Positions 4,315 through 32,853 are shown, counted from the stretch's first letter. The stretch is 64,000 bases of DNA from a virus (IMGVR_UViG_3300044814_000107:3224-67223), one strand, 5' to 3'. Notes: generated by a model not told the origin, from the letters alone. Translations and numbers: made by a program.

Positions 4315-6060
4315 TTAGCTCGTCGACCCGTAGGAGTACGGGCAGGCCGGGTTGTGCGTACCGGCCGTGATCCCCGTGTCGCACAGGGCCGAGATGACCG
4401 CGAGCGACTCGACGCCGATGAAGGCCACGTTCTCGAACGACTCGCCGAAAATCTCGAAGTCGTTCGTCGAGTTCAGGACCGAGTCGCGGACGAGGCCGAG
4501 CTCGAGCGTGCCGCCGTCGAGGTACAGGAACGACCCCTCGGGGAAGAGGTACCAGACGACGTCCGTCGGGAAGGTCTCGAGGTTCCCCGCGTTCTGGACG
4601 TCGAACTCCTGATGCCGGTTCGCGGCCGAGTCGATGTAGAACGTCGGCTCGACGCCGCCGGCGCGCAGCAGCGCGACGAACTTGTCCTGCGTCATCTCGA
4701 ACCGCTGGAACTGCGAGCGGTAGACGTCGGAGACGAGCAGGTCGAGGACCCACATCGGGAGCATGACGCGAAGGACGGCCCCCGGGTCCATGCGGTGCCT
4801 CGACCGCATTCCGGCCGCAGCGACGAGGATCTGCGAGAGCAGGCTCGCCGAGGCGCCGAGGCCGAGGCTGTCGGCGGTGACGGCCGTCGAGTTCGAGTCG
4901 ATGCCCGTCAGGAGCATCCTCTCCGCGAGGCGCGCGTGCGCCGCGAGGACGAGGTTGTTCCACTGCGCGACGCGCTCGGGGAAGGTGCGGGCACCGAGGT
5001 TCCCGAAGCGCAGGCAGTGGTAGAGGATCTCGACGTCGGTCTCGGTGAAGGCCGGACAGTCGACCGACTGGCAGGTCTTCGTCGCTCCCGCGGCGTCCTG
5101 GCCCGCCGTGAGCTGGCCGACGCCCGTCGTGATCGCCGAGAGCGCCGCCGGGCGAGCCGCCCGGATGCCGCCCCTGTCGGCGTTGAACGCCGGCAGCGCC
5201 GCGCGCACGGGGCGCTCGGCGACGGAGATCATCTGGAGGTTGTAGTACGGCGTCACCGGGGCGCAGAGGCCCCCGGACGCGACGAGCGACCCGCCGGACT
5301 GCTTCCGGCGCAGCTCGAAGTTCGACCGGATCTCGTGGTCGCTGACGACCGCAGCGATCAGAGCGGCCGTCGCCTCTTCGTCGAGGCCGATGAGCTTCCG
5401 GTCCTCGGGGTAGAGGTCGGACCAGTTGGCGACGGCGATCGAAACGTTGTCGGCGCCCTCCGGCATGTTGTCACCGAAGGAGCGGCGCCGCGAGATCATC
5501 GTGCGCGCGACGTCGGCCATCGACTCGAACGTCGAACCGAGCGACCTGTCGCCCGCCCCGGCAGCGGCGGTGAGCGGCACCATCGCCACCGACTCGACCG
5601 GCGCGGCCGCCCTTGAGCGTGCCGGGGCCGTGCCGCGACGCCGCGTGGCGCTCGCGGTGACCGCCTCGGGCTCCGCCGCGCCCTCCGCGGCGAGTGCGGC
5701 GATCTCCGCCGCTGCGGCCTCCGCCTCGGCGGGGACCTCGTCGCCCTCGGCGGGGACCTCGTCGCCCTCGGCGGGCGTCTCCTCGGCGGGGACCTCGTCG
5801 CCCTCGGCCGGGACCTCGTCGCCCTCGGCGGCGGGCTCTTCCGCCTCGAACGCGGCGGCGAGCGAACGCGCCTCCTTGACGGCCGCGATGGCCGTCTCGA
5901 CCTCGGCCTTGAGCTGCTCGTACGGCCGCTGGTCGGTCACGAACTCCGCCGGCGACTCGCTTACCTCGGAGAGGCGTGCGGTCGCGGCGTCGATGAAACT
6001 CTGGAGCCCGGCGGCATCGAGTGCGCCGAGGTCCTCCGGAATCTGGAAAAGCGGGTCCAT
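4315..6060 (-). CDS. capsid/scaffold-like structural protein with an N-terminal acidic coiled-coil repeat domain
   Basis: Track ORF 4315..6390, trimmed to MDPLFQIPEDL, where GAGGAGG precedes the ATG. The N-terminus carries AEGDEVP heptad repeats. The C-terminal ~330 aa are capsid-like (DFEIFGESFENVAFIGVESLAVISAL). Confidence 0.5.
   Translation of the reverse strand: MDPLFQIPEDLGALDAAGLQSFIDAATARLSEVSESPAEFVTDQRPYEQLKAEVETAIAAVKEARSLAAAFEAEEPAAEGDEVPAEGDEVPAEETPAEGDEVPAEGDEVPAEAEAAAAEIAALAAEGAAEPEAVTASATRRRGTAPARSRAAAPVESVAMVPLTAAAGAGDRSLGSTFESMADVARTMISRRRSFGDNMPEGADNVSIAVANWSDLYPEDRKLIGLDEEATAALIAAVVSDHEIRSNFELRRKQSGGSLVASGGLCAPVTPYYNLQMISVAERPVRAALPAFNADRGGIRAARPAALSAITTGVGQLTAGQDAAGATKTCQSVDCPAFTETDVEILYHCLRFGNLGARTFPERVAQWNNLVLAAHARLAERMLLTGIDSNSTAVTADSLGLGASASLLSQILVAAAGMRSRHRMDPGAVLRVMLPMWVLDLLVSDVYRSQFQRFEMTQDKFVALLRAGGVEPTFYIDSAANRHQEFDVQNAGNLETFPTDVVWYLFPEGSFLYLDGGTLELGLVRDSVLNSTNDFEIFGESFENVAFIGVESLAVISALCDTGITAGTHNPACPYSYGSTS
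5738..5830. repeat. tandem 21-bp repeats, at least 4 copies
   Basis: ggggacctcgtcgccctcggc is repeated in tandem. On the minus strand this encodes (P)AEGDEVP repeats inside the 4315..6060 CDS. Confidence 0.7.
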
Positions 6061-6440
6061 CTGCGAAGCCTCCTCTGCTGAACGCAGGACTGAGTTGGGT
6101 CGTGCTGACTCGGTTCGGCGCTCGGCGGCTATGTCGCCTCGCTGACGGGGAGCAACTCTGTCGCTCGATCCGGTAGCGGGAGTAAAGCACGGGCTATCCG
6201 TCGCGCCTCCGTCTCCCCGCGGGGGTATGCTCCTCGGCCGTGATCCCCGTCCTCGTTCTGAACCATTGCGTCGCGAACTCGGCCTTCGAGCCGAAGGGTC
6301 GCTGGACGGCCGAGGACGGCCGGATCGAGTCGGGCCGAACCGAACAACGGGATCTCTGCGAGGGAAGTAGGCGGCGGGCGCAGAGGCCAACAGCGCTGCT
6401 CGCGCTCACCCTGTCCTAACCCACCCGAAGGAGGCCACGA

Positions 6441-9547: not shown

Positions 9548-11986
9548 CTAGACCTCGGCCTGCGCCGTGAGCTCGCGAATCTCGGCCTCCTGCTCCGCCG
9601 AGATCCCCTCGAGGAGGATCCCCGCGGCGGTCAGCGTCACGACCTCCGCGTTCTCGCCGTCCGAGACCCCGAGCGCGTGCTGCCGCGGTACCGGAAATCC
9701 CGGCACGTTCACGGCGAGCAGAGCGATGAGCTCGAGGTTGCCGTCGACGCCGCGCCAATCTCCCGAGACGGTCGCGCCGCGCAGCAGGCGCAGCTTCTCC
9801 TCCGAGAGTTCCGGGCTGATCGCGCCGGCGAACCAGCCGCCGAACTCGTCCTCGCCGAAGTTGACGTGCGCTACGACGGTTCCCGTGTGGTCGTAGTGCC
9901 GGGTCGCCTGCTGGCGGGAGAGTCGCTGGCCGGCGTGCGCCGTATCGAGCGTGATCTTGCCGACCGCGAGCTGCTCGCCGTCCTCGCACTCGATCTCGCC
10001 GAGACGGAAGTAGGCGTATTCGGTCTCCGAGTGGGGAGCCGTGACGCACCCGTCGAACGAGAGGTGGCAGGTCTCCCACTCCCAGGCGTGGCCATAGACG
10101 CGACCATCGGGCGTGATCGTCATAGGCGTCAGCTCGGTCAGCTCGGGGTTCTGGAACCACTCGGCGGGCGGCGTAACCGGCGCGAGACCAGCAGCGGCCG
10201 CCGTCAGCGCGGTCGCAGCCTCGACCGCCTCGATGATCTCCGTGATCGGAGGGACGGTCTCGATGGTTTCCTCGGTGCAGCCGCAGTCGAACTCGACGCC
10301 GGACGCGACGAGCGCATCGCAGTCGACCTCGAACTCACTGGTCATTCCCTCGAAGCGGTAGAGCGGAGCGCCGGCGGACGCTGCGAGCGCGATGCTCGCT
10401 CCGCCGAACGCCGGGAACGGGCAGACGGTCGCCATACCGATGACGCCCTTCGTAATGACGAGGATCATCTGCTCGTCGCCGCCGAACAGGCGCTCGACAG
10501 CCTCCTCGAGCGACGGCGGCTCGCCGGCGGGAACCCACTCGCCGTCCTCGCCCTGCTGCGCGATCCAGTCCCCGTCGTCGCCGAACCAGTCGGAGCGCGG
10601 ACCGCGTTCCCACTCGAGCGGCGCGATGTCCACGCTCAGGCCGGTCAGCTCCTTCTCGGCGACCATCCTGGCAATCTGCTGGCCGTACTCCTCCTTCGAG
10701 AAGACGCCGGCCGCCTTGACGAGCTCTCCCTCGCGCCAGAGCTGGTCGATCCGGCCCGCGACCTTCGCGCCGTCGTGGCCGCCTTCCGCGGACGTCTCGA
10801 TCATCGCCATCAGGGTCAGCGGCAGATCGCGCGACCCCTCGTCGGGCGGCAGGATCAGCGCGCCTGGCGCGAACGCGCGGCCGTCCTCGGTCAGGACTCC
10901 CTCGGGCACGAACGTCGCCGTCCACGGGATCGACCCGTCGGTCGGCCGCGCCGTGTCGGCGGGTGCCGGAGTTGGCTCGCCGCTCGGCCCCGGCAGGATC
11001 TCGGCCGGCTCGTGCTCGGCCGGGATCGCGGGAGCGGTCGCCCCGTCCGCCAGTACGACGTCGCGAAGGGCGAAGCGGAACTTCGCCGACGCGGACATCA
11101 CGTCGGCGTCGTCGGGACTCTCGATCCAGCCGCTCTCGACGGTGACCCAGTCGGAGCGGTCGGAGAGGACGGGCTCGCCAACCCCGTCGATCGTGATGGG
11201 CGCGACGAAGTAGTCATCGCCGTCGCAGATCAGAACCTTGTCGAGCTTCACGCCGGCGTCGATCGCGCGCGGCCCGTCGAACGGCTCGCACCATTCGCTC
11301 GCGTAGCCGTCGCTGCGGCCACCCGAGAGGGTGTGGTTCACATCGCAGAGCAGGTCGACGAAGCCGTCCTCCGGCCCCCATGCGACGTCGCCGGCTGCGG
11401 CCTCGAGCGCGAGCAGCGTCCGGCGCGCGATGCGCGCGATCTCCTGCTCGCACCCCTCGAGGTCGGGCCTGACCGCGACCATCGCCGCGGCGAGAGCCTG
11501 TACGTCGGGCTCGGACTCGGGGTAGGCGAACTCGCCGCACCGGCAGGTGCCGCGGCCGTCCTCGTGAGCGCAGGTTCCGCCGGCGCCGGAGTGTTCGGAG
11601 AAGGGATGAGTGCAGGAGCAGCGGACGGCGGCCTGGTACGCCTCGAGCGCCTTGAGCGCCTCGTCCTCCGGCTGCATCTTCGCGCCGGGCTGGTTCTCCT
11701 TCAGCCGCTTGTCGGGCTTCGTCGCGGGGTTCGGCTTACCGCCGAGTTCGAGAGGGGCGAGCGCCTCGGCGAGCTGCGCGCGCTGCTCATCGGTGAGATC
11801 CGCGCCGATGACGAGCTCCTCGGAGTCGTCGGGAACGCCGACCTCGGTTGCGGCTGCGACGAGTTCGCGGATCTGCGCGATGTCCTCGGCCCCGAGGCGC
11901 TCGGTGCCCTGGACCCTGCGGCCGGCCGCGCGCCGTGCGCGCCTCCGGTCCTGCGCGTTCCCTCCACTGACGGTGCGACGGGCCAT
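9548..11986 (-). CDS. large hypothetical phage protein (812 aa) with an N-terminal Cys/His cluster
   Basis: GAAGGAGGAACGGG precedes the ATG at 11986. The product is an acidic 812-aa protein with a CSCTHPFSEHSGAGGTCAHEDGRGTCRCGEF cluster. It sits between the MuF-like gene and the AAA ATPase in the head-gene region. Its function cannot be assigned from sequence. Confidence 0.6.
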   Translation of the reverse strand: MARRTVSGGNAQDRRRARRAAGRRVQGTERLGAEDIAQIRELVAAATEVGVPDDSEELVIGADLTDEQRAQLAEALAPLELGGKPNPATKPDKRLKENQPGAKMQPEDEALKALEAYQAAVRCSCTHPFSEHSGAGGTCAHEDGRGTCRCGEFAYPESEPDVQALAAAMVAVRPDLEGCEQEIARIARRTLLALEAAAGDVAWGPEDGFVDLLCDVNHTLSGGRSDGYASEWCEPFDGPRAIDAGVKLDKVLICDGDDYFVAPITIDGVGEPVLSDRSDWVTVESGWIESPDDADVMSASAKFRFALRDVVLADGATAPAIPAEHEPAEILPGPSGEPTPAPADTARPTDGSIPWTATFVPEGVLTEDGRAFAPGALILPPDEGSRDLPLTLMAMIETSAEGGHDGAKVAGRIDQLWREGELVKAAGVFSKEEYGQQIARMVAEKELTGLSVDIAPLEWERGPRSDWFGDDGDWIAQQGEDGEWVPAGEPPSLEEAVERLFGGDEQMILVITKGVIGMATVCPFPAFGGASIALAASAGAPLYRFEGMTSEFEVDCDALVASGVEFDCGCTEETIETVPPITEIIEAVEAATALTAAAAGLAPVTPPAEWFQNPELTELTPMTITPDGRVYGHAWEWETCHLSFDGCVTAPHSETEYAYFRLGEIECEDGEQLAVGKITLDTAHAGQRLSRQQATRHYDHTGTVVAHVNFGEDEFGGWFAGAISPELSEEKLRLLRGATVSGDWRGVDGNLELIALLAVNVPGFPVPRQHALGVSDGENAEVVTLTAAGILLEGISAEQEAEIRELTAQAEV

Positions 11987-12095
11987 CCCGTTCCTCCTTC
12001 TTCAGGAGCGCTCCCTGCTCGGGAGTTGCTCGAATCGAGGAGGTTCTAGCACGGGAACTCCGCCGCGACCAGCCGCGCAGCGGAGTTCAGGGGAG

Positions 12096-12277
12096 GATCA
12101 GGCCGCGCTACGTTCGTCCGGGTCGACGCCGTGCTGGTAGACGAGGTGCTGCCTGAGGTTCCAGACAGCCGACTCTCGTGAGGAGCGGAGAAACTGGCGA
12201 CCGCAGTCCTCGACCTCGCAGCACGCGACGTAACGCTTCGCGACGGGGTCGTAGGTGACGTTCAGTTCGCGAGCCAC
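12096..12277 (-). CDS. possible small Cys-containing protein (about 59 aa)
   Basis: Own translation, below the track length threshold. A GTG start sits directly after the TAG of the upstream gene. The product reads VARELNVTYDPVAKRYVACCEVEDCGRQFLRSS... Confidence 0.25.
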
Positions 12278-12628
12278 CTAGACCTCCTCCGCGAGCGCGA
12301 TGGTCCACTTGCCCGCGTCGAGCGCCGGCGTATTCCCCGTGCCCTGACCGACCTCGATACACCCGGTCAGGTCGCGCACGACGTCCTCCGTCGCGAACGG
12401 CGCGTCGGGGGGAAGCTCGACGTTCAGGTGGACCAAGATCGTCCTCGGGACCGCGATCAGCGTCGCCCCGGAGACGGGGCAGCAGTGGGTCGTCCCGTGC
12501 CGCGGCTCCTTCAGACGGAGATCCCCGCGCCAGTAGTCAATGACCTCGAACTCCACCTTGCCGTAGCGGGAGTCCCTGACCTTCGACCCGATGGGGAACT
12601 GTTCGCTCAGATCAGACTGCGTGTGCAT
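12278..12628 (-). CDS. hypothetical protein
   Basis: GAGGAGG precedes the ATG at 12628. The 116-aa product is protein-like. Confidence 0.55.
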   Translation of the reverse strand: MHTQSDLSEQFPIGSKVRDSRYGKVEFEVIDYWRGDLRLKEPRHGTTHCCPVSGATLIAVPRTILVHLNVELPPDAPFATEDVVRDLTGCIEVGQGTGNTPALDAGKWTIALAEEV

Positions 12629-12861
12629 CCTCGCCTCCTCTCGGGTCTTCGCGAGCGGCGCAGAGGCGGCCGCGCACGGACTCGAGCAGCTCGAGCGGCC
12701 CAGCAGGAAGGCCGTCGAGACGATCCAGCGTCTCCACCGGAAACAGACACGGGGAGTAGAATCGAGCCGTGGCTGAGCCGCAGAAGAAGAAGGACGAGAT
12801 CGGAGAGCTCCTCGCTGAGGACGAGAACGCGACCGTCGTCGAGGGGCAGCAGGAAGCCTGG

Positions 12862-13152
12862 CTACTGACGGGCGACGCCGTCAAGATCGCCCACGACGCG
12901 CTGCCCGTCCCGAAGCGCAAATAGACGCGGCTTCCCGCTTACCTTCTGACGGACGAGCTCGAGTACGCCCTCGCCGCTCGTCGGCTCCTCCCATCCCGGC
13001 GACATCGCGCGCAGCGACCCGACGAGGACGGGTGGCCCGTACGAGTCCATGAGCAGGTCGTAGACGCGGCCGAGTTCTTGGCCGTCCGAGTCTGAGCCGA
13101 CGTCGACGAGATAGCGGTGGTCGCCCTGCTGCGCGATGATCTTGACGTCCAT
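12862..13152 (-). CDS. hypothetical protein
   Basis: The ATG at 13152 overlaps the stop of the upstream gene (ATGA). The sequence is protein-like. Confidence 0.5.
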   Translation of the reverse strand: MDVKIIAQQGDHRYLVDVGSDSDGQELGRVYDLLMDSYGPPVLVGSLRAMSPGWEEPTSGEGVLELVRQKVSGKPRLFALRDGQRVVGDLDGVARQ

Positions 13153-13631
13153 CAGATGTCCCCCAGGAAGTCCGCGTCGTGCGCGACGAACGCGGCGCTG
13201 CGGACGAGAGAGTCGAGGATGACGGTTCGCTCGTTGGCGCGCTTCGCGATGTCGCGTAGTTCCTTCGCGACATCGACGCTGGTCGGCGTCTCAGGCAGAT
13301 TCGTCTGGACGACCTGCTCGCCCTCGTAGTTCGCCGAGAGCGAGGTCAGCGCCTCGACGGCGTCCTTTAGCGACTGCGCGTGCTCGCGGCTGATGATCAG
13401 GTCGCGGTCCGGGGTGATCCCGCCGATGTCCGCAGTCGTAAGGCCTCCGTGGAGCTCGACCTCGACGTACTGCATCACGTCGGGAAGCGAGCCGTCCTCG
13501 GCGGCTTGAAGGATGTCGAAGTTCCCGGCCCAAGAGCCGATGCCGGGACTTGCGAGCGATGTCGGCGAGAGGTGGTTGGCGAGACCCTCGCGGTACGAAT
13601 CGCCCATCGCGAAGGTCGCGCGGCTGTTCAC
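13152..13631 (-). CDS. hypothetical protein
   Basis: The 159-aa product is protein-like. It is the first gene downstream of the IS insertion site. Confidence 0.55.
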   Translation of the reverse strand: MNSRATFAMGDSYREGLANHLSPTSLASPGIGSWAGNFDILQAAEDGSLPDVMQYVEVELHGGLTTADIGGITPDRDLIISREHAQSLKDAVEALTSLSANYEGEQVVQTNLPETPTSVDVAKELRDIAKRANERTVILDSLVRSAAFVAHDADFLGDI

Positions 13632-13762
13632 GGCCGGGTTGAGGTTGACGATGATGTCGCCATACTCGCCGACAGCGCCACCCTCGTTCGCGGTCCCGGC
13701 GAGGTAGCCATAGATCGGGGATGACTTACTTGACTAACCCCGAGAGGCAAGAGAGGCATAGG

Positions 13763-14482
13763 ATGGCACCTGTTCGGTGCCGTCAACCGCAGGAGGTTCC
13801 CTTGACGCTTCTCTACGACTCGTTCGGTGTTCGCCGTGTGTGGATCGACGTGAACTTCTGGCCCGAACTCCGTGACTTCCGACCAGGGGAACTATCGCAG
13901 CTCTACGCCCATCTCAACTCTGACGATCTCTTCTTGTCGTGCGACCTGAACTCCAACCAGGGCGCACGATTCGATGGGGAGCAATGGGCCTACGACATTA
14001 CGAGCGACCGGCTTGCGCTCAGATGCTTCGGCTACGAGTCCGTTGAACATCTACGTGGCCGTATCCGCGAAATGCTCAGAGGCACCCGAGAGTTCTTTGC
14101 GCCTCGCCGCGTCGCCTTCTTCGTCGATGAAGTTCGGATGTTCGGGGTCGTCCCGGATGACCGCGACCGTCCTATCGGCGAAGTCGTGCGCAAGCGTCTC
14201 CTGCGGGGAACGAAGGCCGAGGAGCTTGAGGGGCTGCCAGGACTCGTCGGCGCCGGTCTGCGGCTCGTAGGAGATACGGACGAGTTCCATTGGCATGCCA
14301 ACATTGAGCCCCCGCATGGCTCCTATGGCGTTCTCGGGCTGGGTGTAGAGGCTTACTTCACGCCGGATGTTGAACCGCCCACGCCCGAGACAGACATTGA
14401 GAGAATCAGCGGACAGGTCGATACTGCGTATACGTTTCTAAACGACCAAGTGAGGGAGTTTGCTAGCAAGCTCTTTCACTAG
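13763..14482 (+). CDS. hypothetical protein (IS cargo)
   Basis: Track ORF 13721..14482, trimmed to MAPVRCRQ, which is preceded by gagaggcatagg. The product is protein-like, with no recognisable family. Confidence 0.5.
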   Translation: MAPVRCRQPQEVPLTLLYDSFGVRRVWIDVNFWPELRDFRPGELSQLYAHLNSDDLFLSCDLNSNQGARFDGEQWAYDITSDRLALRCFGYESVEHLRGRIREMLRGTREFFAPRRVAFFVDEVRMFGVVPDDRDRPIGEVVRKRLLRGTKAEELEGLPGLVGAGLRLVGDTDEFHWHANIEPPHGSYGVLGLGVEAYFTPDVEPPTPETDIERISGQVDTAYTFLNDQVREFASKLFH

Positions 14483-14499
14483 AACAGGAGGAACGGAAG

Positions 14500-14658
14500 A
14501 TGGGTACAGCACGGATCCAGGACGCGGCGATTTCTGCTGCGCGCCGGAAGCGAACTCAGCGGCTCCGCGAGGAGCAGCGCGAGGACTGGGATCGCTTCAA
14601 GAGCTTGACGCGGACGCTCGTCCGCACGCCGAAAGACAAGACCCCCAAGTCCTAGCTA
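14500..14658 (+). CDS. possible small basic protein (52 aa)
   Basis: Own translation. AGGAGGAACGGAAG precedes the ATG. The product reads MGTARIQDAAISAARRKRTQRLREEQREDWDRFKSL... Confidence 0.3.
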
Positions 14659-14668
14659 GTGCGGCTAG

Positions 14669-14890
14669 CTAGCGAAGAACGCCAGAAGCGCGGAGTTGCC
14701 TCAGCGCGTTAGCGGCGATCCGATTCGTGCGCTCGATCTCTGGGCGCCTGCGACGCATCTGATCGCGCGCAGCGCGAAGCGAAGCCTCGTTGTCCCGAAG
14801 CTGTCGCTGAACGCGGGCCAAGAGTTCGCGATCGGATGCGGTCACGAGAGACAGAGTATCGGCGGAAGGGCGGCCTCGGTCAAGAGTCAC
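14669..14890 (-). CDS. small coiled-coil protein
   Basis: AAGGAGG precedes a GTG start that overlaps the upstream stop (GTGA). Confidence 0.4.
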   Translation of the reverse strand: MTLDRGRPSADTLSLVTASDRELLARVQRQLRDNEASLRAARDQMRRRRPEIERTNRIAANALRQLRASGVLR

Positions 14891-15408
14891 AGTTCCTCCT
14901 TAAGCCGAGCAATTTCAACCAGAGCGGCTTGGTAATTCGTGTTCAGGTCGGCAATCAGCTGATCCGACTGTTCGACGCGCTCTTCAAGTTCGGTGCGGCG
15001 GTCGAACTCCTCCTCCCACCATCCCTGCCACTGTTCGACGGCGCCCCGAAGATCCTCAAACGCCTGCGTCTCCAGGGGTCCGAACTTGGACATCCAGTGG
15101 CCCGCCTTACCCCGCTTCCAGAACGAGATGACCATGAATATCGCGGCGACCGCAAGGACGCCGGCGGCGGAGAGCAGGACGAGGCGCGCGGCGAACAACA
15201 CCAGGTTGTTCGCGAAGATGACGTCGATGAAGTTCGGGTTCTTCTGCAGCGGGTGCTGATTGGGGTAGACCCGGTACACAAGTAGTGCGACGGGAGCCAG
15301 GAGTACAAGAAGGGCCACGGCTCCTCTGACAGGATGCTGCTGTTCGGCCGCCTGCGGTTCGGCCTCGGAGCCAGCGTCAGGCAGACCAGCAGCGGGCGGC
15401 TCAACCAT
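14887..15408 (-). CDS. membrane protein with a C-terminal coiled coil
   Basis: Two hydrophobic helices (AVALLVLLAPVALLVY and LLSAAGVLAVAAIFMVISF) are followed by a coiled-coil tail. Confidence 0.5.
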   Translation of the reverse strand: MVEPPAAGLPDAGSEAEPQAAEQQHPVRGAVALLVLLAPVALLVYRVYPNQHPLQKNPNFIDVIFANNLVLFAARLVLLSAAGVLAVAAIFMVISFWKRGKAGHWMSKFGPLETQAFEDLRGAVEQWQGWWEEEFDRRTELEERVEQSDQLIADLNTNYQAALVEIARLKEEL

Positions 15409-15451
15409 GCGGGACCGAGCCTACTACCCGCACCGGTCAATTTCGCCTAGA

Positions 15452-15532
15452 GGTGCGGCCCCGGAAGGATTCGAACCTTCGACCGTCCCCTGAGACCAGC
15501 AGGGCGCTCTGTCCACTGAGCTACGGGGCCGC
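15452..15532 (-). tRNA. tRNA-Thr (anticodon GGT)
   Basis: Minus-strand sequence GCGGCCCCGTAGCTCAGTGGACAGAGCGCCCTGCTGGTCTCAGGGG...GGTTCGAATCCTTCCGGGGCCGCACC. The acceptor stem is a perfect 7 bp, the D-arm is canonical, the anticodon loop is CTGGTCT and the T-loop is GGTTCGAATCC. It lies inside the IS insertion. Confidence 0.75.
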
Positions 15533-15716
15533 TGCGGTCCACAGGCTACGAAGTGGTGCGGACGGAACCCCGCGCAAAGGTCCTGCAAATGAGGCACTGT
15601 TGCGCCGTCCGGTTGAGGGACCTAAACTCTGTTTGCCTGAGACCAGCGTTCTAGGCGCTGAGCTGCGGGGCATTCCCGTTGCACAGCGGAGCGGCCCTGC
15701 GGGGCCGCTCCAACGT

Positions 15717-16229
15717 CTAGGAGGCGGTGAGTTCGAGCCAGGTCAGGCGTCGGCCGAACGCTGTGCCGAGTACGGCGGCGAAGCGGTCGTAGTCGGTGAG
15801 CTTGCGGAGGTTGTAGGCGAGCGTCCGCTCGTCCAAGTACCGGTTCAGGTGTGCCGGATCGACGCTGATGTACGTGCCGTACAGCGACCGCTTCAAGACC
15901 GACCAGAAGTTCTCGATGGTGTTCGTGTGGGTATCGCCGTCCACGTAGCCGTTCATGTGGTTGATGGACGAGTGCTTGAAGCCGTACTCCCAGAGCGCGT
16001 CGTAGGCGCGAGCATTGTCCGTGTAGACGGTCGCTCCGCGCTCGACGGTGTTGACCACATGGCCTTTGAGCGATTGGTGCCCCGCGTCAGGGACGACGCT
16101 CGCGCGGACTTCGCCGCCGCGCTCGACGGCCCCAACGACGACCGTCTTGCTCTTGCGAGTGGCCCTCTGGCGAGCGTTCATCTTCGCGGCCTTCGCGCCG
16201 ACGAACGTTTCGTCAAAAGGGGTATCCAC
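15717..16229 (-). pseudogene. IS1595 (ISXO2-like) transposase, C-terminal DDE fragment
   Basis: The ORF resumes at FDETFVGAKAAKMNARQRATRK...GHVVNTVERGATVYTDNARAY. It is separated from the N-terminal fragment by the MITE-like insertion. Confidence 0.8.
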
Positions 16230-16418
16230 TTACGTGGCCCGATTGTGACGTGGCCCGATTGTGCTGGGAAACGTCGCAACACTTAGACATCGAGTCCTCC
16301 GTGGCAGATGAAGCGCAGGCAGCCAAACTTGCCGCAGCGAGGACAGATGAACCAGCGCCCCACCATCGGATTGGTTCTCCCGGTACTCGCTGAATGGGTC
16401 ATCTAAGTGGATACCCCC
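16217..16418. mobile_element. MITE-like miniature insertion (~200 bp) splitting the transposase gene
   Basis: Terminal inverted repeats aaaggggtatccactta and taagtggataccccctt are flanked by a direct repeat tttcgtcaa. An internal 14-bp direct repeat gtggcccgattgtg occurs twice. The insertion site falls exactly at the EIDE/TFVG junction of the transposase. Confidence 0.55.
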
Positions 16419-16827
16419 TTTCGTCAATCTCGACCTCACCGCTGAACTTCTCGAAGCTCCCGCGCCGCATCGCTTCGCGGACCCGATGGAGGACGAACCA
16501 CGCCGACTTCTGAGTGATCCCGAGCGACCGGCCGAGTTCATGCGAGCTGATCCCGTTCTTCGAGTTCGCAACCAGCCAGATAGCCGGAAGCCACTTGTCG
16601 AAGCCGAGCGCGGAGTCCTCGAAGATCGTGCCGACCTTGACGCTGAACTGCCGCTTGCAGGACTTGCACTTCCACCTGCGCTGATTGGCCAGGTAGGAGT
16701 GTTCGGGAGCGCCGCAGGACGGGCAGACAGGGCCATCGGGCCAACGCAGATCGGCCACGAACTTGGTGGCTACGTCGAGGTTGGAGAAGTAGCGGATCAC
16801 TTCGAGGAGGTTCGTGGGTTCGTTCAT
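16399..16827 (-). pseudogene. IS1595 (ISXO2-like) transposase, N-terminal zinc-ribbon fragment
   Basis: The product reads PDGPVCPSCGAPEHSYLANQRRWKCKSCKRQFSVKVGTIFE and ends ...SGEVEIDERGYPLR* at the MITE boundary. Confidence 0.8.
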
Positions 16828-16900
16828 AAGGGTTACTCTACTACCTCACGGCTGGTTAGTCAAGTAAGTCATCCCCCATAGATCGGACGCTTCTCCGGCG

Positions 16901-18307
16901 TCACATAGCGGTCGTAGCCGAACATTCTGCGCTCGGACTCAGCTCGCCCCGCGACCATGTTGGGAGTGACGCCGGGGGGCCATACGTCAGGACGCACCGG
17001 CAAGCGCAGACCTCTCCCGGATCGCCGTCCGGGTCGCCGGGGAACTGGAGCTGGTCCTCGCCGACCTGGAAGGTTCCGTCAAGCTCGACCGTCTGGCCGT
17101 CGAGGCCGGCGTAGAGCTCGTGGCGGGGGTATTTCGCGCCCGGCGCTGTCCGCCACGTCTTCGAGTAGTTCTGGCCGGTCGCGCCGGCGACGAGCTGCGT
17201 CGCGGCGAGCGAGCCACCATTTGCGGCGCCCGCCAACTCTGTACGCGCAATCAGCGTCGCCCTGGTCGCGGACGCGGCCTTCATCCCGGCGCGGATCGCG
17301 GTCGCTGTCTGCGGGATCGTGAGGCCGTTCTGATAGGCGGACTGGATGATCCGCATGACGTTGAGCTGCGTCGTCTCCGCGATGCTCGTGATCTGGCTGG
17401 CGCTCTGCGCCAAGACCCTCGCGGTCAGCGGGTTCGTCACGTCCCACGAGAGGCCCGCCTGCTCGAGCGCCGGCGTCATCGTCTGCTCGATCATCGCCTT
17501 GCGGACGGGCTCGGTCTTCTGCAGGAGATCGGCGACGAGCTGGTCGACGTCGATGACCTCGTCGGGGAACGGTGCCGACCACGTCGGCGGCTCGCCGGCA
17601 GCGGTCAGCGACGGCACGCCCACGAGCGGGACAACGACCTCCTCGCTATCGCCGCGCACGACGTGGATCGCGTCGAAGTGGAGCGGCTTCCCCGCGGCGC
17701 GCTCGATCGCCGCGTCCCGCTCCTCGGTCGAGGGGTCGGAGTGGACGGTGATATGAGCGGCGAATCCGTGCTGCCTGCCGTAGTCGATCCGCGCCTCGAG
17801 CAGCGCCTCGGTGACGGCGACGCGGAGCTCGACGAGGCCGCGCACGTCGGGGAGCAGGATCCCGACGCCGGGGAAGAGGCCGTAGCCGCCGACGACGCCG
17901 GTCAGCGGGGCGAGCGAGGCGGCGACCGGCCGTAGCGCGTCCGCGATCTCCTCGAGCGGCTGCTCCGTCTGGCCGAGATAGGCGAGCGTCACGTGAAGAC
18001 GCGCCGGCGGATCTCCGTCGGGATCGGCGATCGCCTCAGCCTCGTCGAAGCGGGGCCGCAGGCAGACCATCGTCGCGGTCGCCGAGACGTTCTCGTTCCC
18101 AGCCGCGGCGGTCAGGTGGTTCGTCGCCTTCTGCTCGAAACGGTGCGCGGCGCGCGCACCGGCGCGCGCGAGGATCGGGACTAGAACCCTCGCGAGTCTC
18201 CCCTCGAGAGCGTCTACGCGCTCCTGCGCCGCCGCCAGGACATCGTTGTGCTGTGCGGGGGTCACCCGTACGGCCTTCCTCCGAGCTGTCGACGCAGCCC
18301 TAGCCAC
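16901..18307 (-). CDS. MuF-like head morphogenesis protein with an N-terminal 2H-phosphoesterase-like domain
   Basis: AAGGAG precedes the GTG start. The C-terminus matches the Phage_Mu_F domain (ARTELAGAANGG...YSKTWRTAPGAKYPRHELYAGLDGQTVELDGTFQV). The N-terminus has the paired HxT motifs of a 2H phosphoesterase (LHVTLAYLG and AAHITVH). Confidence 0.75.
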   Translation of the reverse strand: MARAASTARRKAVRVTPAQHNDVLAAAQERVDALEGRLARVLVPILARAGARAAHRFEQKATNHLTAAAGNENVSATATMVCLRPRFDEAEAIADPDGDPPARLHVTLAYLGQTEQPLEEIADALRPVAASLAPLTGVVGGYGLFPGVGILLPDVRGLVELRVAVTEALLEARIDYGRQHGFAAHITVHSDPSTEERDAAIERAAGKPLHFDAIHVVRGDSEEVVVPLVGVPSLTAAGEPPTWSAPFPDEVIDVDQLVADLLQKTEPVRKAMIEQTMTPALEQAGLSWDVTNPLTARVLAQSASQITSIAETTQLNVMRIIQSAYQNGLTIPQTATAIRAGMKAASATRATLIARTELAGAANGGSLAATQLVAGATGQNYSKTWRTAPGAKYPRHELYAGLDGQTVELDGTFQVGEDQLQFPGDPDGDPGEVCACRCVLTYGPPASLPTWSRGELSPSAECSATTAM

Positions 18308-18314
18308 GGCTCGA

Positions 18315-21300
18315 CTACTCCTTGCGGGCGAGGACGCCGGAGACGTAGGTGGCGAACTGCGGAGGCAGCGGAGCCGGTGACTCGTCGTAGAGCGTCCGGG
18401 CCGCGTGACGCTCGACCTGCTCGAGCAGAACGGCTACCTGATCCGCGCGGAGGTTCCAGCTCGAAAGCGTCTCCTCGAGGACCCCGCGCGCGCCCGCGAT
18501 CAGCTCGCGCTCCGACGTTCCGAGTGCCCGCGTCCTCTCCGGCCCCAGCCGCGCGGCGACAATCTGGTTAGGTACGCCGTCGATCAGCTTCTCGCTGTCC
18601 CTGTCGCGCTTGGCGAGGGAGCGGAGTCGACTTCCCGCGAGCTCGCGGCAGCGCCGAAGCGCCAGGTCGGCCGCGCCGACGACCCTCGCCGCCTCGAGCG
18701 CCGACCCGACGACGCTCGAGATCGGTTCCTCGGCCGCGCTCTTCCCCGCGGGCGGTCCGGGCTCGACCTCGGCCCCGACTGCAGGCCCTTGCGACGCGCC
18801 CTCGGTGCCAGTCGCGGAGACGATCTCGCCGCCCTGCGGTTCGATGCCTCCCGACTTGATGGACGGGATGCCGTAGAGCGCGAGGCTGCCGTCGCGGACG
18901 GCGACGCCGATCATCTCGTTCAGCTCGTCGTCTGAGGGCGCGTCCACGTCGTCGAACCCCTTCGCCTTCCGCAAGGCTGCCTTCCCGATCGCGCGCGACT
19001 GGTAGGCGTCGAGCGCGTCCTTGCCGCGATCCGGATGGTTCACGACGTCGGTCGCGTCGTACTTGATCGCGAACTCCGCCCAGTCCTCCCGGCCGCTCGC
19101 GCGCATCTCGGGGCCGAAGTAGGAGGCGGTCAGGTCGTTCACGAGCTGGTTCGACGCCGGCTGGCCGTGAGCCTTCCACGTCTGGTCGTCGACGAGCCAT
19201 CCCGTGTTCCCGGTGAAGAAGACCTTGCCGTTGCGGCGCGCGAACCATGTGTGGTTCGGCGTGACTGGGCACCAGACGATCCCGTCGTAGAAGACGATCC
19301 GGTCGGTCGCGCCGTCAATCCCCTCCCGACGCGCGTGCTCCGCGGCCTTCACCGGCCGGACGCTCTTGGTCTCTAGCCCGTGAACTACGACTCCTCCACC
19401 GCTCTCGTGACGAGAAACGGCGCAACCCGCGAGGATGCACGCCAACTCGAAGGCGTCGAGTCCGTCGCCGTCCTTCTGCCAGATGTCGATGCGGCCCTGC
19501 GAGTAGTGCCAGCCGTCAGCCGCGCAGGAGACGGCGACGAAGATTTGGAGCTGTTCAAAGGTCAGCGCGCGGATGAAGTCGAGCGAGACGCGCTTCTTCG
19601 GCGCGACCACAAACAGATCCTTTGCGGCGTACTGGTTCAGTCGGAAGACGGTGATCGCGCCGCCGTGGCTCGACTCGTTCGACTGCTCGGCCTCGCGCCA
19701 GGCGGGCGCGGACGAGCCGCGCAGCGTGTCGCTGGCGGGGCCGTAGAGACGGCCGAGCAATTCGCGGATCTGCACGACCCGTTCTGGGTTCCTCGTGTGC
19801 GACTGAGAGATGGTCACGTTGCCGCCGATGCTCCCTTCCGTCCAGAACCAGGCGACCAGCCGCACGAAGTCGGACGAGTACGTCGCCTCCTCGGGCGCAG
19901 CGTGCGGCGCGGCGGTGATGATCGAGTGCTTCGCGGCCAGCTCAGCCGAGGTCGTCCACTCTCGGACAAACGGGATTCCTTCGCGCACCGCCCGCGACCG
20001 AGCTTGTGAACGCGCCGCCATGTCAAGAAGCCACGCCTCCTCCTCGGTTAGCTCTCCTCCGACCGTCACGACTATCGGATCGACGACTGCGTTCTCGTCG
20101 ATCGAGCCCGGACATAGGACGGGCCAGCGATGCGGAAGCGTCGTCAGCGAGGAGTGCGTCCGGCTCCGCAATTCGCGCATCGGCTCTCTCTGCGCCTCGG
20201 CGCGATAGATGTCCTGCACGGGCTGCCACTCCGACGCGCCAGTCTCATGGTTCAGCGTCAGAACCTCATCGCCCACGTCGAACTCGTTGTAGTGCCGCCA
20301 ACCCCCAGCCGTCAGGATCTCCGTCTCCTCGTCAACGCACCAGTGATTCGCGTCGGTCATCCCGAGCAGGATCTCGGGAGGCATATCGACTCCGAGCGCG
20401 ATCCGCTTCACGCACTCGTAGCGGAGGCCAGTCTCGGGGTAGAGCTGCGTCGGGTCGATGACCTGGATATGCCGGATCCCTCTCTCCACGGCTTCCGTCG
20501 AGCCGCGAATGACGAGCGGGACGATCTGCGACGCTGCGCCCTCGTTCGCGATCGGGGCCATCATCGCGTTCTTCAGGTCGCGCAGGAACGGGTCCTCCTC
20601 GATGTCCTCGCCGGGTGTGGCCTCGAGCGGCGCGTGCGAGAAGTCCTCCGAGATCGCGAGGATGCCGCTGCCGGCGAGCCGCGACCGGCCGCGCGCCCGG
20701 ACGGCGCGTGTCAGGATCAGTAGCTCCTCGCAGAGGTCGAGGACGCCCTTCATCGGCGAGTCGGCGAGCATCGAGTAGCGCGGGTGGCGGCGCCAGAGCC
20801 GGTAGACGACCGCTTGGTCACCAAGCGGCTCGAAGTCCTCGTCCGCAGCCTCGTAGAGCTGCTCGGCGGCCATCGACGGTGCCCTGTACCGCGTGTAGAT
20901 GCCGGACTGGACGCGAAGCTCGTCGGTCGAGAGCATCTCCCACTGCTCTTGGCCCGTATCGGGATCGGTCGAGCAGAGGAGGTACGTCTCGCCGGCGATG
21001 AACATGAGTCGGCCGTACGAGCTCAGCAGGCCCTCGCGACCGCCACCCGGATCTTGGATCCGCTCGAGTGCGGCGACCGCGTCTGGATCGTCGGTCTCCT
21101 CCCACTCGCCCTTCGCGTTCTTCTTCGCCGGGTAGAGCCGCAGGAGAGACATCATCCGCGCGTAGAACTGCGAGGCGTACCAGATTTCGCCGATCTGGTC
21201 GTAGTAGGAGAACGAGCGCGCCTGCCACGGCTGGATCAGCCGCCGCATCTGGTCGCTGTCTTGGTGGGTGACGCGGAAGCCGGCCGCAGTCAGCCCCTCG

Positions 21301-21365
21301 AGGCCCAGTCCGGAGGCGTTCGGATTACCCGTGCCGTAAGACTTCCGACGCGAGAAGAACCCCAT
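18315..21365 (-). CDS. portal protein interrupted by an intein (1016-aa precursor)
   Basis: The flanking (extein) regions resemble an SPP1 gp6-type portal (SFSYYDQIGEIWYASQFYARMM ... ETGLRYECVKRIALGVDMPPEILLGMTDANHW / TGWLVDDQTWKAHGQ). The intein shows block A (CVDEETEILTAGGW), block B (TLPHRW), a LAGLIDADG-like segment (LVAWFWTEGSIGGN) and blocks F/G (IVWCPVTPNHTWFARRNGKVFFTGN, followed by Thr). Confidence 0.8.
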   Translation of the reverse strand: MGFFSRRKSYGTGNPNASGLGLEGLTAAGFRVTHQDSDQMRRLIQPWQARSFSYYDQIGEIWYASQFYARMMSLLRLYPAKKNAKGEWEETDDPDAVAALERIQDPGGGREGLLSSYGRLMFIAGETYLLCSTDPDTGQEQWEMLSTDELRVQSGIYTRYRAPSMAAEQLYEAADEDFEPLGDQAVVYRLWRRHPRYSMLADSPMKGVLDLCEELLILTRAVRARGRSRLAGSGILAISEDFSHAPLEATPGEDIEEDPFLRDLKNAMMAPIANEGAASQIVPLVIRGSTEAVERGIRHIQVIDPTQLYPETGLRYECVKRIALGVDMPPEILLGMTDANHWCVDEETEILTAGGWRHYNEFDVGDEVLTLNHETGASEWQPVQDIYRAEAQREPMRELRSRTHSSLTTLPHRWPVLCPGSIDENAVVDPIVVTVGGELTEEEAWLLDMAARSQARSRAVREGIPFVREWTTSAELAAKHSIITAAPHAAPEEATYSSDFVRLVAWFWTEGSIGGNVTISQSHTRNPERVVQIRELLGRLYGPASDTLRGSSAPAWREAEQSNESSHGGAITVFRLNQYAAKDLFVVAPKKRVSLDFIRALTFEQLQIFVAVSCAADGWHYSQGRIDIWQKDGDGLDAFELACILAGCAVSRHESGGGVVVHGLETKSVRPVKAAEHARREGIDGATDRIVFYDGIVWCPVTPNHTWFARRNGKVFFTGNTGWLVDDQTWKAHGQPASNQLVNDLTASYFGPEMRASGREDWAEFAIKYDATDVVNHPDRGKDALDAYQSRAIGKAALRKAKGFDDVDAPSDDELNEMIGVAVRDGSLALYGIPSIKSGGIEPQGGEIVSATGTEGASQGPAVGAEVEPGPPAGKSAAEEPISSVVGSALEAARVVGAADLALRRCRELAGSRLRSLAKRDRDSEKLIDGVPNQIVAARLGPERTRALGTSERELIAGARGVLEETLSSWNLRADQVAVLLEQVERHAARTLYDESPAPLPPQFATYVSGVLARKE
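19206..20339 (-). mobile_element. intein (~378 aa) with a homing-endonuclease-like domain, in the portal gene
   Basis: Coordinates were derived from the amino-acid positions of intein blocks A through G (aa 343-720 of the precursor). The ending is unusual: GN followed by Thr. Confidence 0.65.
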
Positions 21366-23121: not shown

Positions 23122-23462
23122 GGGTCCCAGTTCTTACTGACGAGGCCGACGGCGGCGTTCAGCGCGAACGCTGCGAGGGCGTAGAGCGTCCAGCGCGGCT
23201 CCTCGAGCCAGGCGACGTAGACGCCGCAGCCGACCCAGAAGCCGGCGCACCAAGGACAGCCGAGGAACTTCGCGAGTACCGGTCGGGTGTAGGTGCCGCG
23301 CGGGTCGTCGTTGTAGACGCGGACGCCCTTGTTCCGCTCGTTCCGGCCAGAGAGCCAGTGGCGGAGCCTAACGGCGTACGGCCACTCATCCCAGCCGATG
23401 AGTCTCACGAGACGAAAGGTCCCGAGCGCGAGAACGAGCGCGACCCACGGCGACGGGATCAC
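23118..23462 (-). CDS. membrane protein with a CPWC motif (DUF1360-like)
   Basis: Track ORF 23118..23507, trimmed to the GTG (VIPSPW) that overlaps the epimerase stop as GTGA. The product contains FLGCPWCAGFWVGCGVYVAW. Confidence 0.5.
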   Translation of the reverse strand: MIPSPWVALVLALGTFRLVRLIGWDEWPYAVRLRHWLSGRNERNKGVRVYNDDPRGTYTRPVLAKFLGCPWCAGFWVGCGVYVAWLEEPRWTLYALAAFALNAAVGLVSKNWDP

Positions 23463-24345
23463 GAGACGAGCTCCGAGAGTCCGACTTCGAGCGGACGCGG
23501 GTTCCACCCGCGCAGGCCCGCGCGGATCTTCGTCGAGTCGAGACAGCTCGATCGAACCTCTCCCGGCCGCGCCGCGACGAACTCATGGCGCGACCCGAGC
23601 CGCGTAAGCAGCGAGAGAATCCGCGTCTCCGCTCCGGTGCCGACGTTGTAGACGCCGGGCAGAAGATGGCAGGCGTCGATCGTCGCCGACGCGACGTCGG
23701 ATACGTGGACGAAGTCGCGGGTCTGCTCGCCGTCGCCGTAGACGACCGGGACGAGACCCCGTTCGATCTGGTCGAGGAAGATCGCGACGACGCCGCCTTC
23801 GGCGTCCGCTCGCTGACGAGGCCCGTAGACGTTCGCGTAGCGCAGGATGACGTGACTGCAGTCGAGGCCGAGGTAGCCCTCGCCGGCGAGCTTCGAGACG
23901 GCATAGGGGGAGACTGGCTTCGGAAGGTCGATCTCCAGCGCCGGCCCTCGACAGTCGCCGTACATCGCTCCGCCCGTCGATGCGAAAACGACCTTCGCCT
24001 CGCAGAGAGCGGCCGCCTGCGCAACGCGGAGAGTGCCGAAGACGTTCGTTCGCGCGTCCTCGAACGGATCGACGACGCTGCGGGTTACGTCGGTCTGCGC
24101 CGCCAAGTGATAGATGACCTCGGGCTCGGCCTCGATGATCGCTTCGGCCGCCTCTACGGTCGCGACGTCCCGCTTCACGAAGTAGGCGGCCGACCCTACG
24201 AGGTTCTCGAGCCTGCCGGTCGAGAGGTTGTCGATCACGAGGACGTATTCGCAGCCGCGCTCGAGAAGCTGCTCGACGAGGTGCGATCCGATGAAGCCTG
24301 CGCCGCCGGTGACGACAGCGCGGCGCGGCGTTCGGCGAGAGTCCA
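23459..24345 (-). CDS. NAD-dependent epimerase/dehydratase (GalE-like)
   Basis: A Rossmann motif (VVTGGAGFIGSHLVEQL) and a catalytic YxxxK motif (YAVSKLAGE) are present. The start was approximated at the GTG of VDSRR. Track ORF 23459..24499. Confidence 0.75.
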
Positions 24346-24419
24346 CGCCCGAAGGATGCCACGAACGGCGAGAGAGCGCGGAGGGAGCCTCACGGCCCCC
24401 CTCCGCCAGGTTGGTTCCT

Positions 24420-24884
24420 CTACGCCGACGGCGTGAGGATGATCTCGCCCGAGGTCTCCTCGCTCGCGGCGACGGTGAGCGTCGCTGCGAGGTGGACATC
24501 GACGCCGTCCGAGCTGCGCGTCGAGTCGCAGGAGATGACGGTCGCGCCGAGCGCGGTCGTCAGGGTGACGACGGCGGACAGGCCGTCCGCAGCCGCCTCG
24601 ACCGTCGCGACGCTCTCGTCGCTGGACGCCCAGACCGGCACGTCGTCCGGCGCGGTCGGGTTACCGTCCACGTCGAGGAACGACGCCGCGGCGCTGAGCG
24701 GAGAGCTGGTGTCGAGGACCTGAAGGTCCATGATGGTGACTCCTTCCAGTTGATGCCAGACTATGAATCCGAGGAGGGGCGGCCCTGGCGCAGCCAACTC
24801 CACCTGTCGCGCGAGTTGCCGTAGCAGTCGCGCTACGACCGTGCCGTTGGCCTCGATGAGTTGCCGCCAAAATCCCTTGGTCAT
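24420..24884 (-). CDS. bacterial Ig-like (Big_2-type) domain protein
   Basis: The C-terminal ~100 aa have an Ig-like pattern (VWASSDESVATVEAAADGLSAVVTLTTALGATVISCDS). An alternative internal start MDLQVLD at 24731 is preceded by GGAAGGAG. Confidence 0.55.
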   Translation of the reverse strand: MTKGFWRQLIEANGTVVARLLRQLARQVELAAPGPPLLGFIVWHQLEGVTIMDLQVLDTSSPLSAAASFLDVDGNPTAPDDVPVWASSDESVATVEAAADGLSAVVTLTTALGATVISCDSTRSSDGVDVHLAATLTVAASEETSGEIILTPSA

Positions 24885-32601: not shown

Positions 32602-32853
32602 TTAGGCGGTACGCCACTTCCGGCGCTCGTGTGCGGCGATCTCGCGCGGGACAGCCTCACGATCCTGCTTCGCCTGGATCGCCGCGCGATGGATCAGCGA
32701 GCGCGCGAGCTTCGACGTCCTGCAGAGGCTACCTCGCGCGAAGACGAGCAGCGACCAGAAGACGATCCCGAGAGCCAAGCGGAAACGGATGATCTGGCGG
32801 CTGCTGAACTTCTCGGCGAGGAGACGGGCGAGCGGCGGATCAGGCTGCGGCAT
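32602..32853 (-). CDS. small membrane protein
   Basis: Track ORF 32602..32949, trimmed to MPQPDPPLARLL, which contains a transmembrane helix. Confidence 0.35.
   Translation of the reverse strand: MPQPDPPLARLLAEKFSSRQIIRFRLALGIVFWSLLVFARGSLCRTSKLARSLIHRAAIQAKQDREAVPREIAAHERRKWRTA

Follow-up and report, generated by a model that had tools for sequence, protein, structure and literature searches.

The 64,000-nt stretch of viral DNA analysed here (IMGVR_UViG_3300044814_000107:3224-67223, hereafter the window) very probably carries a cargo-bearing IS1595-family transporter insertion sequence (tIS) inside a phage gene for a DUF3626-domain protein. The insertion sequence (IS) is a mosaic of three layers: the standard layout of its clade, an extra segment of ~1.06 kb, and a smaller nested element that splits its transposase. 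Both elements belong to known kinds, the outer one to the IS1595 tIS and the nested one to the IS-derived miniature inverted-repeat transposable elements (MITEs), and neither is a new kind. The structure was first pointed out in an earlier note drawn from the sequence alone.

Outer element and interrupted gene

The outer element is 3160 bp long (Table 1). Its termini are two copies of the 23-mer GGTTAGTCAAGTAAGTCATCCCC that match each other at all 23 positions, and each is abutted by the 8-bp target-site duplication CATAGATC. The perfect 23-bp repeats and the 8-bp duplication are as the earlier note described them, as is the element itself, but its ends had been placed 1-2 nt off (at 13718-16878). 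The note had named a further occurrence of the repeats away from the ends as grounds for doubt; the window contains just two copies of the 23-mer, oppositely oriented, and none of 100 dinucleotide-preserving shuffles contained a match even with up to three mismatches allowed. The G+C content of the element is ~58-65%, compared with ~66-74% in the flanks. A TTGACT hexamer resembling a -35 box lies within the left inverted repeat (IRL) and points inward toward the transposase gene. The features that define the IS1595 family are all present, namely the DDE domain, the zinc ribbon, the terminal inverted repeats, and the 8-bp duplication. There is one transposase gene and one repeat pair, with no second flanking IS copy, and the stretch from the transposase stop to the distal repeat accommodates four open reading frames (ORFs) and a tRNA, as expected of a tIS.

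In-silico removal of 13717-16884, that is, the IS and one copy of CATAGATC, brings a 44-codon ORF stub (16869-17003) and the ORF at 13152-13631 into one reading frame. The empty site then reads …GCGAGGTAGCCATAGATCGGACGCTTCTCC… and the fused frame, on the phage coding strand, MVAGRAESERRMFGYDRYVTPEKRPIYG|YLAGTANEGG…. The restored protein matches Pfam DUF3626 at residues 5-68 (31.5 bits against a cutoff of 27); in tblastn, its residues 2-122 align with DUF3626 proteins from Nodularia phages. Both matches cross the junction at residues 25-28. Because the DUF3626 frame is restored across the junction, the IS sits inside the gene and the reconstruction serves as a virtual empty site. The element had been placed just downstream of the MuF-like gene, but it interrupts the next gene, at about codon 27 of the DUF3626-domain ORF. 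The gene was destroyed by the insertion, a loss that the phage presumably tolerates. The DUF3626 domain is that of the Salmonella effector SopF (PMC6682159). No significant match to the restored protein was found among PDB sequences with phmmer, and no relatives were found in IMG/VR.

Split transposase and nested element

The transposase, described earlier as an ISXO2-like DDE enzyme, is assigned to IS1595 by both Pfam and NCBIfam. It is present as two ORF fragments, one at 16399-16827 (-) with a zinc-ribbon match at residues 19-60 (Zn_ribbon_IS1595, PF12760, 48 bits) and one at 15717-16229 (-) with the catalytic domain (DDE_Tnp_IS1595, PF12762, 124 bits). The frame is broken at EVEIDE|TFVG because the 203-bp insertion and its 8-bp duplication together are not a multiple of three. 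When 16217-16427 (the nested element and one duplication copy) is removed in silico, an uninterrupted 299-codon transposase gene results; the restored transposase junction reads …FSGEVEIDETFVGAKAA… and the nucleotide junction of the IS without the nested element …GAGGTCGAGATTGACGAAACGTTCGTCGG…. The return of the EVEIDETFVG motif in this frame bears out the proposed split between EIDE and TFVG. The IS1595 domains of the restored protein score 134 and 47 bits in Pfam, and with 183 bits the protein clears the cutoff of 75 set for the NCBIfam model transpos_IS1595. Its motifs are EIDET…YTDN…TIENFWSVLK (D, D, and E, with K 7 residues further), and it aligns over its full length to thousands of IS1595-family transposases of ~300 amino acids (aa), the best of which is metagenomic and 84% identical. 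A 29-mer from the uninterrupted transposase was not found in IMG/VR.

An autonomous IS has an intact transposase frame; with its transposase broken, the present copy cannot move itself. It could be mobile only with an intact related transposase supplied in trans. The G+C-rich hairpin directly past the transposase stop is not called an intrinsic terminator because no T-run follows it. None is predicted elsewhere within the outer element, and read-through from the phage late genes is therefore possible.

The nested element contains no transposase and has perfect 14-bp inverted termini, GGGGTATCCACTTA, at 16219-16232 and 16404-16417, which are the sole two copies in the window. The earlier description of a ~200-bp element with its own duplication stands, but not the 17-bp length given for its repeats, which are perfect over 14 bp and extend to 26 nt at 85%. 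The sequence TTTCGTCAA is found on both sides of the element (16208-16216 and 16419-16427); judging from the sister elements described below, the duplication proper is probably 8 bp long, TTCGTCAA. The element is inserted where the transposase gene encodes its first catalytic aspartate (EVEID|ET). Inside the element there is a tandem 16-bp duplication (16232-16263), the coding capacity is one 39-codon ORF with no significant family match, and the interior weakly resembles the zinc-ribbon region of a transposase (blastx E 0.12).

Exact 14-bp termini spaced 150-180 nt apart were sought in IMG/VR, in 185,579 genomes, and in metagenome contigs. The first two collections gave no match; the contigs, with G+C contents of 38-59%, gave four sister elements of 190-206 bp with identical termini. 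The interiors of the four are unrelated to each other and to that of the nested element, and every sister has longer terminal repeats of its own (~22 bp). If the two variable outer nucleotides are counted inside the element, the sisters are flanked by the 8-bp duplications ATCCGTAC, TTATGTTA, ACCGTCAA, and TAAATGAA. None of the four lies in a transposase gene, and a preference of the nested element for such targets was rejected for that reason. One sister (L006, 249-448) interrupts a 208-aa ORF (…MKTARLFNNGKSQA|VRIPAEYRFEGDEV…), which at the junction looks by eye like an AbrB/SpoVT-type antitoxin.

A full-length IS with nearly the same ends is found in a metagenome-assembled genome (MAG) of Bryobacterales (L087, 7850-8880). 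It is 1031 bp long, its ends (GC+CGGGTATCCACTTG…) match the nested termini at 12 of 14 positions, and its 8-bp duplication, TTTGAAAG, has the same 2-nt offset. The 310-aa transposase has both IS1595 Pfam domains and is 34% identical to that of the window. This IS belongs to a different genome and is not the actual partner of the nested element. Judged by its termini, the nested element is a non-autonomous derivative with ends from a different IS1595-family lineage than the outer IS. Like bacterial IS-derived MITEs, it is small (~200 bp), lacks a transposase, and has inverted termini and a duplication of the length typical of the presumed parent family (8 bp, IS1595); the L087 IS, with near-identical ends, may represent a related autonomous counterpart. 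Several copies per genome belong to the usual definition of a MITE. In this respect the nested element differs: it had no match in IMG/VR or the 185,579 genomes, and the four metagenome matches share termini only. The five elements with these termini also differ from such MITEs in their unrelated interiors and in hosts ranging from 38 to 68% G+C; their appearance is that of derivatives that arose separately and kept strongly conserved ends, not that of a single amplified family.

Table 1. Features of the outer and nested elements, the interrupted gene, and the neighbouring head genes, in window coordinates
Feature	Position	Strand	Remarks
Outer element	13717-16876		3160 bp
Left target-site duplication CATAGATC	13709..13716	.	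identical 8-mer at 16877-16884; abuts inverted repeat
Right target-site duplication CATAGATC	16877..16884	.	abuts inverted repeat
Right inverted repeat (IRR), transposase-distal, GGTTAGTCAAGTAAGTCATCCCC read inward	13717..13739	-	23/23 match with 16854-16876
IRL, adjoining transposase start	16854..16876	+	23/23 match with 13717-13739
Transposase 5' part, Zn ribbon and helix-turn-helix region, up to ..EVEIDE	16428..16827	-	Zn_ribbon_IS1595, 48 bits; reconstruction
Transposase 3' part, DDE domain, ..TFVG to stop	15717..16216	-	DDE_Tnp_IS1595, 124 bits; reconstruction
Nested MITE-like element, termini NN+GGGGTATCCACTTA, no transposase	16217..16419	.	~203 bp
Left duplication of nested element, TTCGTCAA	16209..16216	.	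9 bp when T16208 is included
Right duplication of nested element, TTCGTCAA	16420..16427	.	
G+C-rich hairpin GGAGCGGCCC-CGCA-GGGCCGCTCC	15688..15711	-	directly past transposase stop; read from sequence
226-aa passenger gene	13802..14482	+	TTG start at 13802 (most likely), 5 nt past AGGAGG
51-aa tail ORF (…EDWDRFKSLTRTLVRTPKDKTPKS)	14500..14655	+	own AGGAGG ribosome-binding site
73-aa basic helical protein	14669..14890	-	4-nt overlap with stop of 173-aa gene
173-aa protein, two transmembrane helices and long C-terminal helix	14887..15408	-	start uncertain; gene caller used 143-aa form
tRNA-Thr (anticodon GGT)	15455..15530	-	ARAGORN cloverleaf; Rfam 53.8 bits, threshold 29
Degenerate copy of tRNA 5' half (acceptor arm, D arm, same anticodon loop)	15636..15671	-	local alignment
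Interrupted phage gene, 5' portion (MVAGRAESERRMFGYDRYVTPEKRPIYG..)	16877..16958	-	overlaps end of MuF-like gene 16901-18307
Interrupted phage gene, 3' portion (DUF3626-domain protein)	13152..13716	-	joins in frame with 16877-16958 after excision
MuF-like head-morphogenesis protein with N-terminal 2'-5' RNA ligase/LigT-like phosphoesterase domain (residues 89-216)	16901-18307	-	PHROGs
Portal protein	18315-21365	-	PHROGs
Prohead protease	9548-11986	-	PHROGs
Major head protein	4315-6390	-	PHROGs

Passengers of the element and of its relatives

The five closest relatives that could be compared in their context (L001, L002, L003/L004, L005, and L015) share the terminal repeat of the window element, with 1-5 mismatches; they have lengths of 1987-2704 bp and perfect 8-bp duplications (CTTACAAC, CTTGCAAG, CTTGTGAG, TTTACAAG, and TGGCGTTT). 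They are about twice as long as needed for the transposase alone, and in each the surplus consists of a gene that runs convergently to it. More widely, 79 loci were fetched from named genomes and delineation was tried on 52, of which 37 have a repeat pair and a perfect 8-bp duplication at lengths of 1754-5412 bp. The delineated set comprises 43 elements, the window element and 42 others, and the others all have perfect 8-bp duplications. From the lengths and passengers of these relatives it follows that carriage of passengers is the rule in this clade, as none of the 42 other elements consists of a transposase only. The standard layout, of ~2 kb, is a transposase with a convergent passenger module, which in the window element is the 226-aa gene and the 51-aa ORF. 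The closest named hosts are Actinomycetota MAGs: Propionibacteriales (76%, a partial match), Actinomycetes (68%), and Solirubrobacterales and Acidimicrobiia (~60%). The elements of the clade end in GGyAATAATATACTTGAC or GGGGATGACTTACTTGAC and are 1.75-5.4 kb long. They may belong to the ISNwi1 group of ISfinder, which is listed 'with passenger genes' and spans ~1.75-4.75 kb with ends GGnnAT…, values that the ends and lengths of the clade fit.

The cargo ORFs are present as the earlier note described them, and all are intact, while the transposase is not; the cargo is presumably expressed. The start of the 226-aa passenger is most likely the TTG at 13802, the longer forms from ATG at 13763 or 13721 being less favoured. 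The protein has a predicted double-domain fold like that of the TATA-binding protein (TBP) and belongs to a small family, of 22 proteins, without a Pfam domain. It was considered as a diverged trypsin-like passenger, but this was rejected on the grounds of the TBP-like fold and of no sequence similarity. A homologue occupies the same position, together with a tail ORF, in the 1987-bp element L015, which has the same repeat. Another is found in an IS1595 element with different repeats (GGGGATTATCCCTTG…; L013, 5919-8314), accompanied by a 99-aa ORF and a ParE-family toxin.

The 51-aa ORF, with the C-terminal end …DRFKSLTRTLVRTPK…, resembles the C-terminus of the L002 passenger (blastp 1e-6), and a profile of the tail family picked it alone out of 1027 window ORFs (E 1.2e-5). 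Tail ORFs of this kind, of ~50-90 aa, adjoin the 3' end of the transposase in at least 25 of the 43 elements (L015, L025, and L032-L064). They share the motif (F/Y)xxFxxxLxx(V/I)LxV(P/S)(K/H), followed by a basic tail that is often NPNRRGPKPK, and the family has no match in Pfam. The motif also ends the trypsin-like passengers of L001, L002, L003, and L005, and L064 has the tail as a fusion to a Dam-type methylase. No description of this ORF was found in a shallow check of the literature.

The trypsin-like passengers of the sister elements match PDC-S45, a candidate in PADLOC, at E 2e-10 to 4e-9 and show a weak match to LmuA; other sister passengers are a DUF3800 protein, a ParE toxin, and DNA methyltransferases, of which one is joined to an Mrr-like nuclease. 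The cargo of the clade thus has the flavour of conflict systems, and for the window copy this is circumstantial. The four cargo proteins of the window element (226/239, 51, 73, and 173 aa) gave no match in PADLOC-DB v2, PHROGs, Pfam, or NCBIfam, and the suggestion in the earlier note that the cargo could be a moron with a defence or exclusion function gained no direct support from them.

Beyond the standard layout, the window element has an extra ~1.06 kb (14656-15716), comprising the tRNA-Thr, a relic tRNA half, and the genes for the 173-aa and 73-aa proteins, precisely between two convergent stop codons. In the relatives these stop codons abut or overlap, and none carries the extra segment. 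The 173-aa protein has 23 homologues, and its AlphaFold 2 model consists of transmembrane and long helices only (predicted TM-score 0.35). The pair recurs, with ~74% of nucleotides identical, in an integrase/Prim-Pol island (L017), in L018, and beside an unrelated IS (L019), with the 73-aa protein as the conserved partner ORF downstream of the 173-aa homologue in all three.

The tRNA-Thr proposed in the earlier note is called by both ARAGORN and Rfam. Its anticodon loop is C-U-G-G-U-C-U, with C in place of a purine at position 37, and its variable loop is 7 nt in place of the standard length. A pyrimidine at position 37 of a tRNA is very unusual, and the function of this tRNA is uncertain because of its C37. 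About 100 nt upstream lies a degenerate tRNA half that aligns to tRNA positions 2-42 with 31 of 36 aligned positions identical and one 5-nt gap, which hints at an origin of the segment in a tRNA locus earlier rearranged or used as an attachment site. Transport of the tRNA together with the membrane-protein module was considered and rejected, since the homologous modules (L017, L018, and L019) have no adjoining tRNA. Two of the 43 delineated elements contain tRNAs, the window element and one from an Acidobacteriaceae MAG (L052, 4947-10029, 5083 bp). The latter has a tRNA-Ala and an odd 91-nt tRNA-Ile call; it also holds a second transposase-like stretch and may be nested or composite.

The tIS category was defined on the IS1595 family by Siguier, Gagnevin & Chandler 2009, as cited in PMC3129680, and a definition also appears in the TnCentral preprint (10.1101/2021.05.26.445724); the category is said, with reference to Siguier et al. 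2009, to be confined to two families, IS1595 and IS66. The window element resembles the IS1595 tIS in its zinc-ribbon DDE transposase, inverted repeats, 8-bp duplication, and passengers unrelated to transposition. It differs in its location among phage head genes, its tRNA, its extra two-gene module, and its broken transposase.

Origin of the mosaic and phage context

The structure suggests a sequence of events. Between its convergent genes, a ~2-kb tIS of the L015 type would have taken up both the module with the membrane protein and the segment with the tRNA, and the extra 1.06 kb would accordingly be a later acquisition. A copy would then have transposed into the phage DUF3626 gene, whether in the course of an infection or while the phage was a prophage, by a DDE transposase recognising the two 23-bp repeats and making a staggered 8-bp cut that yields the CATAGATC duplication. 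The small IS1595-family element may have hit the transposase gene before or after this transposition; if before, the tIS would have to have been mobilised in trans.

Several observations weigh against the tIS interpretation. A comparison with related phages, proposed in the earlier note, turned up no natural empty site: the empty-site 24-mer is absent from IMG/VR, and the nearest phage comparator (L099) has no DUF3626 gene. Megablast of 11500-19500 against GenBank phages found no close relative. The exact 23-bp repeat is absent from IMG/VR, megablast of the IS against PLSDB plasmids gave nothing, and no second copy of the exact outer IS was found in IMG/VR or plasmids. Nor do the three collections searched for the nested element hold a second copy of it with a similar interior. 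The pyrimidine at position 37 of the tRNA-Thr belongs here as well. A Logan contig (L016/L101, run SRR24887271) has the same structure and is not independent evidence because it is 100% identical over 15.3 kb. An exact look-up of the MuF-like protein returned just this contig, with no IS-free variant on record, and an exact-protein look-up of P0121 found nothing. All data come from metagenome assemblies, so that viability of the phage and expression of the cargo are presumptive.

The metagenomic source also raises the question of an assembly artefact in which reads of a host-genome IS were misjoined into the phage contig. Repeated elements often cause chimeric joins, and the G+C content of the element is unlike that of the phage. 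Such a misjoin would not, however, leave the same 8-bp duplication at both junctions or an ORF that is restored by removal of the IS with a Pfam match over the junction, and the Logan assembly of SRR24887271 has the same structure base for base; an artefact is hardly credible. It is also very improbable, if somewhat less so, that the nested segment is no mobile MITE and arose as a one-off rearrangement or as a fragment with chance inverted ends. The missing second copy with a similar interior and the faint likeness of the interior to the zinc-ribbon region would fit such an origin. Against it stand the perfect 14-bp termini, the 8-9-bp duplication, and the exact restoration of the conserved EVEIDETFVG on removal, as well as the four ~200-bp elements from unrelated metagenomes, with identical termini and their own 8-bp duplications at the same 2-nt offset, and the full-length IS1595-family IS with near-identical ends.

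Two further explanations concern the role of the cargo. It may act as a phage moron, with the tRNA-Thr aiding translation and the protein pairs providing exclusion, defence, or counter-defence, and the insertion may have been kept for its benefit to the phage or lysogen. The conflict-type passengers of sister elements (PDC-S45-like trypsins, methyltransferases, and a ParE toxin), the recurrence of the module of the membrane protein and its 73-aa partner on other mobile elements, the three tRNAs that the phage itself has, and the intact state of all cargo ORFs beside a broken transposase all favour this. It is nevertheless unlikely: the four cargo proteins have no match in the databases searched, the tRNA-Thr has the atypical features described above, the insertion cost the phage a gene, and the insertion is on record in one phage lineage, so that no sign of selection can be read. 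Alternatively, the clade as a whole could be a specialised shuttle for conflict genes built around the accessory tail module, for which the motif may be written F/W-x-R-F-x-x-L-T-x-x-L-V-x-(T/V)-P-K followed by a basic tail. The tail would then couple to the passenger or regulate it, for example as an adaptor or antidote. This is a slim prospect; if true, the phage copy would show such elements delivering cargo, tRNA included, into phage genomes.

As a tIS inserted in a phage gene, the element gives one concrete route by which phages may gain accessory genes, with a passenger module, a tRNA, and a membrane-protein pair carried into a structural region. Insertions of IS into phages and prophages are familiar from the IS elements of coliphages and the small mobile elements of mycobacteriophages, which occupy non-essential slots. 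The window case is alike in that the element sits in a presumably non-essential slot and is recognised by its duplication and relatives, and differs in that a passenger-carrying tIS is involved that is itself interrupted by a second element. A shallow search of the literature found no description of an IS1595 tIS in a phage. A few features go a little beyond the routine: the setting in a phage, a tRNA as a rare kind of passenger, nesting on three levels, and the tail ORF seen across the clade. The last of these, together with the passengers of the clade, may interest IS curators and those seeking defence or addiction cargo. For annotation of the phage, the outcome is a disrupted DUF3626 gene, an inactive transposase, and cargo without an assigned function.

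The phage is of an actinobacterial type. The interrupted gene is placed between the MuF-like gene and the prohead protease. In the related IMG/VR phage L099 the MuF-like protein is 69% identical and the portal–MuF–protease order is the same; the 1.6-1.9 kb between its MuF-like and protease genes contain no transposase and no DUF3626 homologue, which makes this interval a variable slot. The remark in the earlier note that IS elements are rare in lytic phage structural modules presupposes a lytic lifestyle, which for this phage is a presumption. No integrase was found among the 10 large ORFs scanned, in a non-exhaustive scan of a window that is part of a ~92-kb contig.

The nesting of selfish elements on record here, with phage gene, tIS, and MITE as three layers, occurs in a genome that also has putative inteins in its portal and terminase. 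The 1016-aa portal protein contains an insertion of ~370 residues starting CVDEETEILTAGGW…, by which its PHROG portal match is split in two. The L099 portal does not have the insertion, as the tblastn segments for query residues 1-348 and 721-1014 abut, and the insertion is most likely an intein. The 868-aa large terminase (45396-48002, -) matches Terminase_6C at residues 684-831 and LAGLIDADG_3 at residues 305-354, and it probably contains a second intein, one that includes a homing endonuclease. Elsewhere in the window, a Ro60 orthologue (40602-42668, -), with TROVE (134 bits) and Ro60 von Willebrand factor A (195 bits) domains, is found directly downstream of two tRNA-Ser genes (43169-43251 and 43912-43997). 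Other phage genes on the same strand encode an SPFH/Band-7 protein (31538-32443), an NAD-dependent sugar epimerase/dehydratase (23459-24499), and a family-2 glycosyltransferase (32840-33541).

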